Shown here piece after piece: positions 1 to 9,067 of a DNA stretch of 64,000 bases; position 1 is the first letter of the stretch, and the number at the start of each line of letters is the position of its first letter. Source of the stretch: Candidatus Nomurabacteria bacterium (GTDB taxonomy: Bacteria; Patescibacteriota; Minisyncoccia; Phycocordibacterales; UBA918); the NCBI GenBank assembly GCA_023898525.1, contig CP060227.1:429634-493633 (forward strand). Direction: 5' to 3'. The notes beneath the pieces are model-generated. The model was given only the letters and a program-made list of their open reading frames with translations, did no database searches and was not told the DNA's origin. The translations under genes were made by a program, and so were the position numbers.

Positions 1-118
1 CTGCAGGTAGGCGGCATCTTTACCGCCATTGTATTTTCACCGAGCAGGTCCTCGAGACAGTTTCCCACTCGTTACGCCATTCGTGCACGTCGGAACTTAC
101 CCGACAAGGAAATACGCT

Positions 119-390
119 CTATATCTCCTTCTCCTACAAAATAAATTGTAGACATTTCACTATAGGACTCTATCTTCACCCTTCTGATATTTTGGTATAA
201 CTCCTTAGTTGAATAAGTATTTCATTCAACTAATTTGATATCCCATATCAAATTAGGGTGTGCAACATTTGGTCTCTTGTTGGTTGCATTTGGACAATCT
301 TACATTTCTGTAAGTAAGGTAACTATGGCTAGGCTGCTTAACCTACAATCGTTCTAGTCCGTTTGATGCACGTATTTCTACACGCACCAA
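119..390 (-). other. Intervening sequence 1 in 23S rRNA (~270 nt, no ORF) at the E. coli L1931-equivalent site; candidate small group I intron
   Basis: The conserved 23S sequence CCTAAGGT|AGCGAAATTCCTTGTCGGG is continuous in E. coli. Here CCTTAGAACG ends at 391-400, and cccgacaaggaaatacgctct ends at 120. The ~270 nt between them has no 23S counterpart and contains internal hairpins, for example ccctaatttgatatgggatatcaaattag. Confidence 0.55.
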
Positions 391-1147
391 ACCTTAGAAC
401 GATTATAGTTATCGCTGACATTTACTGGGGCTTATACAGTCCAGCAATACAATCCGAAGATCATATCACCCCCCGTATTTAACCTTCCAGCATAGGTCAG
501 GCGTCACCCTCTATACATGGACTTACGTCTTCGCAGAGAGCTGTGTTTTTGTTAAACAGTCGGCAGGAAATCTTTCGCTGCGGCCCTTACCCCGAAGGGT
601 TTGGGCGGACCTTATCCCTAAGTTACGGTCGCTTTTTTGCCGAGTTCCTTGAGGACCTCTCACTCGTTCGCCTTAGTCTTCTCGACTCTACCACCTGTGT
701 CGGTTTGCGGTACGGAACCACTATGTTTAACCCAAACGAAGTTTTTCTCGGAAGCGTGCTCCTCAAATCGGTTTGACGAATCTCCCCTTCAGACTCACCT
801 TGGAGTATTGCCATGCGGATTTGCCTACATGACCTCCTCAGTGCTCCAGCACCAATCCAATAAGATGCTTTGAGTACAACACTCCGTCCCTCCATAGGAA
901 CATAGCAGTGTGCAGGAATATTAACCTGCTATCCATCGAGTCCCCCTTTCGGGATTCCCTTAGGACCGACTAACCCTTCGCTGATCACCATCGCAAAGGA
1001 AACCTCGGTATTTCGGCGGACGGGGGTCTCACCCGTCTTGCGGTTACTTGTGCCGGCATTCTCACTCCTCCTCGCTCCATCTTGGCTCCCGCCTTGAGTT
1101 CATCGCAGAGAAGGACGCTCTCCTACCACTTGTAGGCTTCATTGAGG

Positions 1148-1425
1148 ATCCGAGGACGAATCCTCGGAAAATTATTTTAACGAAATGTTTTTCTCATACT
1201 TCAAATTTTGAGACAGAATATGGTATTTTTTTGATACTTCTTTCAATACTTCCTTTGCTTTATTAACCGCTTCATCATGTCCAAAAGCTTTTATTGGGGC
1301 CTTTTCACGTTTAATAGAATTCGTAAAGCCTACCATCCTTGAAAAGAAACTATCGTTTATATAAGAATAATATAAAAAATACCCTTCCTCTTCTTTACTC
1401 ATTTTTTCCTCCTGTTATTTTACTT
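1148..1425 (-). other. Intervening sequence 2 in 23S rRNA helix 45 (~278 nt), flanked by a 19-bp perfect inverted repeat, carrying a protein-coding ORF
   Basis: tgtaggcttcattgagg (1131-1147) and cctcaatgaagcctaca (1426-1442) form an extended helix-45 stem. Everything between is absent from E. coli 23S, whose corresponding hairpin is GCAGCGACGCUUAUGCGUUGUUG. Helix 45 is a classical site for RNase III-excised IVS. Confidence 0.65.
1172..1402 (-). CDS. 76-aa protein encoded inside 23S IVS2; N-terminus resembles small GIY-YIG nucleases (YhbQ/UPF0213-like: FLY...G.T......R)
   Basis: The ORF lies fully within the insertion. A strong SD, AGGAGGAAAAAATG, sits upstream (revcomp of 1403-1416). The motif GYFLYYSYINDSFFSRMVGFTNSIKRE parallels the [24 protein letters not shown] of GIY-YIG family members. 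Confidence 0.45.
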   Translation of the reverse strand: MSKEEEGYFLYYSYINDSFFSRMVGFTNSIKREKAPIKAFGHDEAVNKAKEVLKEVSKKYHILSQNLKYEKNISLK

Positions 1426-1526
1426 CCTCAATGAAGCCTACAAATCCGCAGTTTCGGTAATATGCTTGAGCCCCGATCATCTTCGGCGCAAGGACTCTCG
1501 ACCAGTGAGCTGTTACGCTTTCTTTA

Positions 1527-1561
<35 letters not shown>

Positions 1562-2128
1562 TAGAGAATCCTCACCTCCTCACTTTGCACTGAGCATATA
1601 TTTAGGGACCTTAACTGGCGATCTGGGCTGTTTCCCTTTCGACCAATGGAGCTTCTCCCCCATAGTCTAACTGCCGCGCTGTAACCTACTGGTATTCGGA
1701 GTTTGATAAGAAAAGCGAGATTTCTCCCTGTCTTTTCTTTCCAGTGCTCTACCCCCAGAGGGATCACGCGACGCCAACCCTAAAGCTGTTTCGGAGAGAA
1801 CCAGCTATTACGGAATTCGATAAGCTTTTCACTCCTTACCACAAGTCATCCGATGGTTTTGTACGGCCAACCGGTTCGGGCCTCCACGACCTTTTACAGT
1901 CGCTTCACCCTGCTCATGGCAAGCTCATCCCGCTTCGGGTCGTACCCCTGCCCTATATTCGCGCTATTAACGCTCGCTTTCACTGTGCCTACGTGGGATT
2001 ACCACTTAAACAAAGGACAAAGGTACACTCGCCGGCTCATTCTTCAATAGGCACGCCGTCACCCAAGTAAACTTGAGCTCCGACTCCTTGTAGGTGTATG
2101 GTTTCAGATCTATTTCACTCCCCTCTCC

Positions 2129-2174
<46 letters not shown>

Positions 2175-3473
2175 TTCAAGAATATTTAGCCTTACCAGTT
2201 AGTACTGGTGGATTCACCCGAGCTATTCATGTCTCGGGCTACTCAGGAACAAAAACCAAAGAGATGTATATATTTCGAATACAGGACTATTACCTTCTAG
2301 GGTCGTACTTTCCAGTACATTTTCCTATATATACATTTTGTAACTCTTCGCAACTAAATGCCGTTTTTGCCCTACAACCCCATACATATAAATACGTATG
2401 GTTTGGGCTCTTCCCGTTTCGCTCGCCGCTACTAAGAGAATCGCAAGAACCTTCTTCCTAAACGTAATGGCGCTCTCGCACCACAGTTCAGGAATTTCTC
2501 CCTGAACTGGATGCTAAAGCATCCGTTCAGAAAGAAAGTTCCACTATTGCTTTCTATTCCTACAGGTACTGAGATGTTTCACTTCCCTGCGTACGCCTCC
2601 TCATACAAGGATCACTGCCGATGACAGCGGGGTTTCCCCATTCAGACATTTCCGGGTCAAAGGTTGATTGGCACCTCACCGAAACTTATCGCAGCCATTC
2701 CACGTCTTTCTTCGCTTCTTGAAGCCTAGGCATCCACCATACACCCTTACATTCCTGTAAGGAACGCTATACACCGTTTGGCTTTACGTTCGCTTACCTT
2801 CATGCTGTGCACCGCTGCACAATTTTTGAGTGTGTGTCTCTGCTTGAAAAAATACAGTAATTCAAACAGAGACGTGTCTCATCTAAAAGATGAGACGTTG
2901 TGTTTGATTTGTCGTGGACGAAAAGACCCTGTCCGAAGACATAAAATCTTTACACGACAAATCGGTTTACCTACAGTGTGAAAATCACGAAGTGATTTTC
3001 ACACTATTGCCACGCGCGCGTCGAACACGCGTGGACTTTTCGGAACAGACCTTATCAATCTGTTCCTTTTAGAATATGCGATTGCGTGGTCTTTGCCACA
3101 CAACCCCCAATCACTTGATCAGGCGACAGAAAGTATGAACATGAATCATATTCGCACTTTCTGTCGCTCGACTTCAGTTCTTGAGAATTGTCAACGATCG
3201 CGTACCTCCGTAAGTTTAGTTTAAAAAAACCGCGTGACCGCGGGAAAGACGTAAAAACGAATTTCGCGCGATTAGCTATTTCTTGTTCCTAAACTCATAA
3301 ATACGTGAGCGCCATTGTATACGAATCAAAAATAAAGTCAAGCGTTTATTGTGGTTAAAAGTAGCCTACTTATGTACTTTTTATTCACAGTTTTATGCAC
3401 AATAAAAAATACCTTTGCGGTAGACCCTTTTTCAGCCACACAAACAAAATACAGCGCTTTTATTATTAGTAAA

Positions 3474-3509
3474 TAAAAAACCGCCGGTGTTAAATCCGGC
3501 GGTTTTTTA
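3474..3509. terminator. Rho-independent terminator hairpin (aaaaaaccgccgg...ccggcggtttttt), bidirectional
   Basis: Perfect GC stem flanked by A-run and T-run, immediately 3' of CDS 3524..4195 (minus). Confidence 0.7.
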
Positions 3510-8993: not shown

Positions 8994-9067
8994 CGGGGTG
9001 TAGCATAGTGGTAGTGTGCACGCATGGGGTGCGTGTGGCCCGAGTTCGATTCTCGGCATCCCGACCA
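8994..9067 (+). tRNA. tRNA-Pro (anticodon GGG)
   Basis: Manual fold of the 74-nt sequence cggggtgtag...catcccgacca. The acceptor stem is CGGGGTG/CATCCCG with the C1:G72 pair typical of bacterial tRNA-Pro. The anticodon stem is CACGC/GCGTG with loop ATGGGGT. The T-arm is CCGAG TTCGATT CTCGG, followed by discriminator A plus encoded CCA. Confidence 0.8.

Follow-up and report, generated by a model that had tools for sequence, protein, structure and literature searches.

We analysed a 64,000-nucleotide (nt) stretch of contig CP060227.1 from a Candidatus Nomurabacteria bacterium (henceforth referred to as the window), which begins with the greater part of a 23S ribosomal RNA (rRNA) gene, read from the minus strand, that carries in its helix 45 a long insertion with a small open reading frame (ORF) inside it. 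The gene, the insertion and the parts of the insertion, in the order in which they are transcribed, are as follows (bp, base pairs; aa, amino acids):

Window 1-2760, minus strand: 5' two-thirds of the 23S rRNA gene (Rfam LSU_rRNA_bacteria, 1530 bits, model positions 1-2075); the 3' end lies beyond the window edge.
Helix 45, minus strand: insertion of ~290-295 nt in the hairpin at model positions 1206-1226, within its apical loop (Rfam alignment).
1425-1445, minus strand: 5' arm of the closing stem, RNA AUUUGUAGGCUUCAUUGAGGA, from the 19-bp inverted repeat and the 21-bp stem compared across 30 elements.
1403-1424, minus strand: A-rich, unstructured leader with a Shine-Dalgarno (SD) sequence, AGGAGG, at 1408-1413, 5 nt ahead of the ATG.
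1172-1402, minus strand, which is the rRNA strand: 76-aa ORF, stop codon included, assigned by sequence to a new mini-protein family.
1149-1168, minus strand: 3' hairpin U CCGAGGA UUCG UCCUCGG A, 8 bp with a UUCG loop.
1128-1148, minus strand: 3' arm of the closing stem, RNA UCCUCAAUGAAGCCUACAAGU, from the inverted repeat and the stem comparison.

In the 23S rRNA of E. coli the flanks CCGAAGCUGCGG and GGUAGGGGAGCG enclose a 21-nt hairpin at nt ~1163-1183, which we take to be helix 45 by standard E. coli numbering, and the counterpart flanks in the window, CCGAAACUGCGG and GGUAGGAGAGCG, enclose a helix-45 segment of 318 nt. About 290 nt of this segment are extra sequence, helix 45 being 18-30 nt long in relatives free of the insertion. 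Both this comparison and the Rfam alignment assign the insertion to the apical portion of helix 45 (E. coli ~1164-1185), as a preliminary description of the window had done; the extent given there, 278 nt at 1148-1425, is that of the interior between the stem arms and is smaller than the full insertion. No intron or other Rfam family gave a significant match within window 1125-1448 (best E 0.14, to an unrelated family), and the insertion is of the stem-closed, non-intron type, again as described before.

The closing stem rests on a 19-nt inverted repeat (1130-1148 and 1425-1443) that is 100% complementary, in agreement with the perfect stem noted earlier, and is lengthened by one U.G and one A-U pair to 21 bp (1128-1148 and 1425-1445), so that the complementary termini form a long stem of the kind that measures about 20 bp or more. 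The 5' arm consists of the stem native to helix 45 in its basal ~9 nt and of the insertion-specific CUUCAUUGAGGA in its distal part; the arm motif occurs in a single copy, with no other in the 64-kb window. The leader is unpaired in both the minimum-free-energy and the centroid fold, and the 3' hairpin begins 3 nt past the stop codon of the ORF and adjoins the 3' arm without a gap. As a whole the element folds at -92.8 kcal/mol (z = -6.2), a stability reached by none of 100 shuffled sequences. The ORF has the reported length and lies on the same strand as the rRNA, and its SD sequence is present as reported, except that the spacer is 5 nt (AGGAGG AAAAA ATG) rather than 6. Such a perfect AGGAGG-N5-ATG in an unpaired leader makes a strong ribosome-binding site in a host where an SD sequence precedes the first ATG in only 2 of 23 ORFs of at least 250 aa (window 2900-64000); the leaders of the host ORFs are AT-rich, and the window holds no 16S rRNA from which to read an anti-SD sequence.

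Comparison with other 23S genes identified the element as one of a family. When the 20-nt 23S segment just 5' of helix 45 was used as the sole query, 45 genome loci were recovered, almost all of them metagenome-assembled genomes (MAGs) of Patescibacteria, also known as the Candidate Phyla Radiation (CPR), from Paceibacteria, Kaiserbacteria, Nomurabacteria and Saccharibacteria; 40 of these loci were informative. The closest flanks are those of locus L007 (identity of 99% and 98% across 250 nt to either side), followed by those of L036, a Candidatus Paceibacterota MAG (98% and 96%), a group that NCBI places in the phylum Minisyncoccota. The 96-99% identity of the 23S flanks to Paceibacterota MAGs supports the CPR host proposed earlier. 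The suggested comparison of related 23S genes for presence and absence was also informative: helix 45 is a hairpin of 18-30 nt in 29 of the 40 loci and holds an insert of 183-394 nt in the other 11, all of which open with GUAnnCUUCAyngAGGA-like arms, and the long and short forms are intermixed within Kaiserbacteria, Nomurabacteria and Paceibacteria, a sporadic distribution. A metagenome scan with the 3' arm and the rRNA flank as query added 28 further loci, and the comparison set used below comprises 30 distinct helix-45 elements from Patescibacteria 23S genes.

All 30 elements have the same shape, a closing stem and a hairpin abutting its 3' arm. Among 15 distinct stems 99% of cells are paired, both sides have changed in 12 of the 21 pairs (as high a value was found in 0 of 500 shuffles), and pairing falls to 27-44% if the partner strand is slid by 1-3 columns. 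The distal arm varies with compensation in the flank-only set (CACAGAGGA, CAUUUAGGA, CUUUUGUGG, CAUCAAGGA). The start of the window leader, GAAGUAAA, is found again in 8 other loci, representing 6 distinct elements, and an SD sequence with at most one mismatch from AGGAGG precedes the ORF in 14 of the 20 ORF-bearing elements. In 29 of the 30 elements the gap between the hairpin and the 3' arm is 0-1 nt, with many unrelated sequences among the hairpins; no other 36-nt window is as stable in 22 of the 30, and the mean energy of the hairpin is -15.1 kcal/mol against -5.4 kcal/mol for other windows of the cargo. The 18-nt core of the window hairpin is unchanged in L046, the protein of which is only 40% identical, and the RNA modules are therefore more tightly constrained than the cargo. 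Judged by sequence, these elements constitute a family of helix-45 cassettes, not previously characterised, that is patchily distributed in the 23S genes of Patescibacteria. The cassette appears confined to 23S: three 18-mer matches in viral contigs sit in ORFs of 342-972 codons, lack the 3' arm and were set aside as chance.

Between these constant parts the cargo differs in kind. It is a small soluble protein (55-89 aa) in 13 distinct elements and a peptide with one hydrophobic segment of 15-24 residues in 7 (L007, L027, L035, L060, L062, L066 and L070, with SD-led ORFs of 37-69 aa), while about a quarter, some 8 elements, are without a convincing ORF. L066 and L068 have nearly the same 3' hairpin and different types of ORF. 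The helix-45 insertion of L024 (CP060229.1, the complete chromosome of Candidatus Nomurabacteria HK-STAS-PATE-25) contains a tRNA-Cys(GCA) on the rRNA strand (L024:4972-5046, plus strand), which sits between arms of the same family (GUAGGCUUCAUUUAGGA and UCCUAAAUGAAGCCUAC); nested in an intervening sequence (IVS) of 23S, this tRNA would be freed by rRNA processing. The ORF-less cargos of L015 (183 nt) and L041 (195 nt) are clearly homologous to each other, sharing the blocks GUCCUC.AAA.GGGCC..AAGCUGUC and UAAGGA..GCAGCGGCGUCA...UGACG.GUCCAAU as well as a long internal hairpin in which two pairs are compensatory, and may represent a class of structured non-coding RNA.

The comparison of the window with L007 is the most direct: the two are identical in rRNA flank, 5' arm and start of the leader, and identical again at the 3' arm, whereas ORF and hairpin in between are unrelated (a soluble protein of 76 aa versus a hydrophobic one of 69 aa). 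Identical arms and near-identical flanks around unrelated cargo mean that the cargo has been replaced between near-identical 23S genes, for which this pair is direct evidence. The window cargo is also compositionally foreign, the ORF having a GC content of 29% compared to 41.1 ± 3.5% in host genes.

We considered whether the 76-aa ORF is a gene. An exhaustive phmmer search of 1.84 billion representative proteins returned a single relative (P0001, from L046; E = 5e-4), the only contig of which is a 23S fragment with the gene in a helix-45 insertion of the same architecture, and L036 supplied a third member, likewise in a helix-45 insertion; within the local set the three are linked by phmmer E-values of 1e-9 to 1e-23. 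A word-indexed homologue search with the window ORF alone gave no match, and when 5.8 billion proteins were searched with a 13-member profile of insertion ORFs, nothing beyond these same ORFs was recovered. The three members are 39-49% identical in protein and open in all cases, the proportion of nonsynonymous differences (pN 0.30-0.36) is about half that of synonymous ones (pS 0.64-0.71, which is saturated), and identity declines from the second to the first to the third codon position. The chance of 76 stop-free codons at this AT-rich composition is ~5e-4. On these sequence comparisons the window ORF is very probably a real gene, and its family appears as a new mini-protein family known only from helix-45 insertions. 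Eighteen columns are invariant in the three-member alignment (M1 G7 Y8 F9 L10 Y12 G25 F26 T27 I37 E44 A45 K50 Y60 L63 S64 L67 I73), and tryptic digestion of the protein would yield the peptides EEEGYFLYYSYINDSFFSR, AFGHDEAVNK and YHILSQNLK.

AlphaFold2 with a two-sequence alignment predicted a beta(6-16)-beta(31-39)-alpha(42-59)-beta(60-70) fold for the 76-aa protein, with a predicted local distance difference test score of 77.7 and a predicted template modelling score of 0.58; a single-sequence model, all-helical and with a template modelling score of 0.33, was set aside in its favour. With Foldseek the predicted fold found nothing significant in the PDB, and in BFVD a resemblance at the level of fold only, to tiny uncharacterised phage proteins. 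The window ORF had no match in Pfam or NCBIfam at E<=10. The N-terminus had previously been likened to small GIY-YIG nucleases, and this likeness did not hold up: neither the window ORF nor any of the 13 insertion ORFs matched PF01541 at E<=10, the family profiles matched no GIY-YIG chain among all PDB sequences, and no structural similarity to solved GIY-YIG domains was found. Of the catalytic set (the Tyr of GIY, the Tyr of YIG, Arg, Glu and Asn) the family cannot supply the whole, as no Arg, Asn or His is invariant, and the second motif reads GFT, not YIG. The protein is likewise not S23p (23S_rRNA_IVP, PF05635), which gave no Pfam or NCBIfam match and is a four-helix bundle rather than beta-beta-alpha-beta, and a phage or defence protein was rejected with only noise in PHROGs (E>0.01) and nothing in PADLOC. 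Among the 13 insertion ORFs two matched YhzD-like (PF14120) weakly (best E 0.0028; no match for the window ORF), and other weak matches were to DUF4288 and DpnD/PcfM. The soluble ORFs have in common a pattern Y-x-phi-x-Y ... phi-EA-x-s-EEA ... A ... W ... phi-x-SLE, which suggests a wider superfamily that we do not claim. Their isoelectric points range from 4.5 to 9.3, and with charge varying so widely a generic RNA-binding role is not indicated.

The position, the closing stem, the non-intron nature and the patchy distribution match the window element to the fragmentation-type IVSs of helix 45. We consider it fairly probable that it is such an IVS, most likely excised by RNase III, that acts as an rRNA-driven mini-mRNA cassette with exchangeable cargo. 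From 5' to 3' the cassette would consist of a ~21-bp stem extending the native helix 45, an A-rich single-stranded SD leader, the cargo and a hairpin stacked on the 3' arm. It would be transcribed from the rRNA promoter as a portion of pre-23S rRNA; both strands of the closing stem would then be cleaved by an RNase specific for double strands, with RNase III the likeliest candidate, leaving a functional 23S rRNA in two pieces and a free RNA of ~290 nt. With its ends paired and its 3' side capped by the hairpin, which could stack on the residual stem, the freed RNA may persist as a protected mini-mRNA, and ribosomes loading at the exposed SD sequence would produce the 76-aa beta-beta-alpha-beta protein, which is not predicted to be a nuclease. 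That the freed RNA is built to act as a message is suggested by the single-stranded leader, the perfect SD sequence, the constrained ORF and the 3' hairpin. Mobility would require no enzyme of its own, as homologous recombination could swap cargo from genome to genome by way of the rRNA flanks and arms, which are near-invariant. Excision, the RNase responsible, the stability of the freed RNA, its translation and the route of recombination are steps that we infer, and precedents exist for several of them. RNase III cuts helix-45 IVSs with long terminal stems midway along the stem, with no re-ligation of the pieces, in Salmonella, Leptospira and Coxiella (PMC4990558). A survey of CPR bacteria drew the same inference about excision for short non-intron insertions at known IVS sites and refers to evidence of transcripts in which CPR rRNA insertions are missing (PMC11270868), and a report on Saccharibacteria, another CPR lineage, describes natural competence shown by experiment there (PMC10187176).

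Several points weigh against this interpretation. The excision of the element and 23S rRNA fragmentation are argued by analogy with the systems just named, and no RNase III gene (ERLEFLGD-like motif) lies in the 64-kb window, although this is uninformative for the whole genome. In Coxiella, the precedent studied best, the IVS RNA is short-lived and the ORF within it apparently untranslated (PMC4990558). Some elements have no ORF, and a protein product cannot therefore be the general cause of the upkeep of the scaffold. The metagenome loci were selected by the conserved 3' arm, which inflates the apparent conservation of the arms; arm conservation is therefore to be judged from the flank-only set. 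At the protein level, the predicted fold derives from an alignment of two sequences, the estimate of dN/dS is rough because there are only three demonstrable homologues and pS is saturated, and the family is weakly tied to the other soluble ORFs (hhalign probability 70% over 30 columns; profile E-values 0.007-1.4).

One rival possibility is that the element is an excised IVS with an untranslated relic ORF, a neutral or selfish passenger in which ORF conservation reflects recent ancestry or constraint at the RNA level. Coxiella S23p offers a precedent (PMC4990558), roughly one element in four is devoid of an ORF and the protein family is tiny; yet three ORFs that are just 39-49% identical are all open, have kept the SD sequence and concentrate their variation at third codon positions, and the SD sequence that is poor in Coxiella is perfect here, in a genome that rarely uses one. 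We regard a relic ORF as unlikely. Retention of the insert in the mature ribosome as a surface extension of helix 45, with stem and hairpin in structural roles, would be in keeping with helix 45 being a surface helix tolerant of insertions and with a second highly structured, ORF-less expansion in the same 23S rRNA (2445-2546, z = -8.2). An A-rich single-stranded leader, an SD sequence and an ORF conserved as protein would not be expected of a structural expansion, however, unrelated cargo in near-identical rRNAs, a tRNA included, points to a released product, and every helix-45 insert with a long terminal stem that has been studied experimentally is excised (PMC4990558), all of which makes retention improbable. 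It is still harder to credit that the arms CUUCAUUGAGGA and UCCUCAAUGAAG are recognition sites for a trans-acting recombinase or an RNA-level integrase, comparable to the attC sites of integrons: the distal arm sequence is indeed more conserved than pairing alone demands, and the cargo classes between the constant arms are strikingly diverse, but the distal arm does vary with compensation in the unbiased flank-only sample, no recombinase is linked to the element, the arm motif occurs once in the window and by chance in viral contigs, and homologous recombination through the rRNA flanks suffices. Lastly, a mobile element driven by an ORF-encoded GIY-YIG homing nuclease is effectively refuted by the protein comparisons above, despite the superficial 'GYF ... 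GFT' spacing at the N-terminus, a predicted beta-beta-alpha-beta order that loosely recalls the GIY-YIG core and the occurrence of such ORFs in some CPR rRNA insertions (PMC11270868).

If the excised mini-mRNA cassette that we favour is taken one step further, helix 45 of Paceibacterota 23S might be a dedicated, exchangeable expression slot. Any cargo between the conserved arms, whether it encodes a mini-protein or a membrane peptide or is itself a structured RNA or a tRNA, would be transcribed at the strength of the rRNA promoter, released by a double-strand-specific RNase and then protected by its paired ends and the 3' hairpin. We put this forward tentatively, as a proposal with the balance against it. 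If it were true, a gene that formally encodes rRNA would be the source of small proteins whose production keeps pace with ribosome synthesis, and the beta-beta-alpha-beta proteins, which are known from this slot alone, would form a new class of proteins encoded in rRNA, with the ribosome or the host of these epibiotic bacteria as possible targets.

The 23S gene of the window contains two further insertions, which the preliminary description did not mention; it takes up 2760 nt for only 2075 model positions because it holds three in total. These two are as follows:

2445-2546, minus strand: insertion 1, ~102 nt, near Rfam LSU model position 228.
119-390, minus strand: insertion 3, ~272 nt, near Rfam LSU model position 1953.

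The 102-nt insertion has no ORF and folds into a three-way junction (-60.7 kcal/mol); relatives have 68-231 nt at this site (model position ~228), and it looks like a lineage-specific expansion segment. The 272-nt insertion, also without an ORF, comes immediately behind the U that corresponds to E. coli U1931 (exon ...CUAAGGU, then intron ... AUAG, then AGCGUAUUUCC). Its match to the Rfam group I intron is full-length but stays below threshold (23.6 bits, the gathering score being 50; E = 5e-4), and a group I intron, small and divergent and located at the classical L1931 site, is the probable identity. Among relatives (L007, L054 and others) the L1931 region ranges from a 19-nt baseline, with no insertion, to ~2.2-2.8 kb between anchors, and throughout the clade all three insertion sites of the window 23S are hypervariable. 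No 16S or other rRNA was found with Rfam in the remaining 61 kb of the window, the only other Rfam RNA gene in the 64 kb being a tRNA at 8994-9064. The 23S gene is thus not preceded by 16S rRNA or spacer tRNAs within the window, and the rRNA genes of this genome appear to be unlinked. The ~700-nt leader upstream of 23S (window 2761-3500) contains several long inverted repeats visible by eye (e.g. ~2970-3005 and ~3125-3170), which might serve as processing stems.

Knowledge of helix-45 IVSs dates back to 1990, and ORF-bearing IVSs and rRNA insertions in CPR bacteria are also already known. In the literature searched we did not find described the stem, leader and hairpin cassette, mini-protein families confined to it, demonstrable replacement of cargo, or a tRNA as cargo. 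As to the purpose of helix-45 IVSs, this family offers a cleaner test case than Coxiella S23p, the one well-studied IVS ORF, because it combines a conserved RNA scaffold, a perfect ribosome-binding site where such sites are rarely used, constraint at the protein level, cargo replacement and a tRNA cargo. If the released RNA is translated, rRNA genes would also act as vehicles for protein genes in a major bacterial radiation. Because rRNA is masked in standard annotation, ORFs and tRNAs within rRNA loci are missed; fragmented 23S would also affect RNA-integrity metrics for CPR-rich samples.

In its proposed mechanism the cassette recalls the early mRNA of phage T7, where RNase III processing leaves a stable 3' hairpin that protects the upstream message; the analogy is one of mechanism only, with no sequence relationship and with rRNA as the context here. 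The helix-45 IVSs of Salmonella, Yersinia and Campylobacter share with the window element the site, a stem-loop closed by inverted repeats and a patchy distribution, but are ~100-150 nt long and non-coding, whereas the window element has the make-up of a translation-ready cassette; their patchiness has been attributed to horizontal transfer and recombination between rrl genes (PMC4990558, PMC11270868). For CPR bacteria short non-intron insertions at known RNase III IVS sites have already been noted, and sites 23IS2 and 23IS4 of Tsurumaki et al. 2024 (PMC11270868) come from the same clade and would be of the same class if 23IS4 is the helix-45 site. That survey reported only ORFs with Pfam domains, and the scaffold of stem, leader and hairpin, mini-protein ORFs without a Pfam domain, cargo swapping and tRNA cargo are not part of it. 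The closest counterparts are the ORF-bearing helix-45 IVSs known in Leptospira, Coxiella and Brucella (PMC4990558), in view of which the earlier remark that a protein gene in a fragmentation-type IVS is unusual was overstated. Like the window element, the Coxiella and Leptospira IVSs sit at the tip of helix 45, carry one small ORF on the rRNA strand, occur sporadically among relatives, have long complementary termini (28 bp for Coxiella and 21 bp for the window element) and a similar size (428 nt versus ~290 nt), and reside in single-copy rRNA hosts with reduced genomes. They are excised by RNase III, as is proposed for the window element. In contrast to them, the window ORF does not encode an S23p-type four-helix bundle but a predicted beta-beta-alpha-beta protein, its SD sequence is perfect where that of Coxiella is poor, a conserved hairpin abuts the 3' arm, and the cargo is interchangeable between soluble proteins, membrane peptides, putative non-coding RNA and a tRNA.
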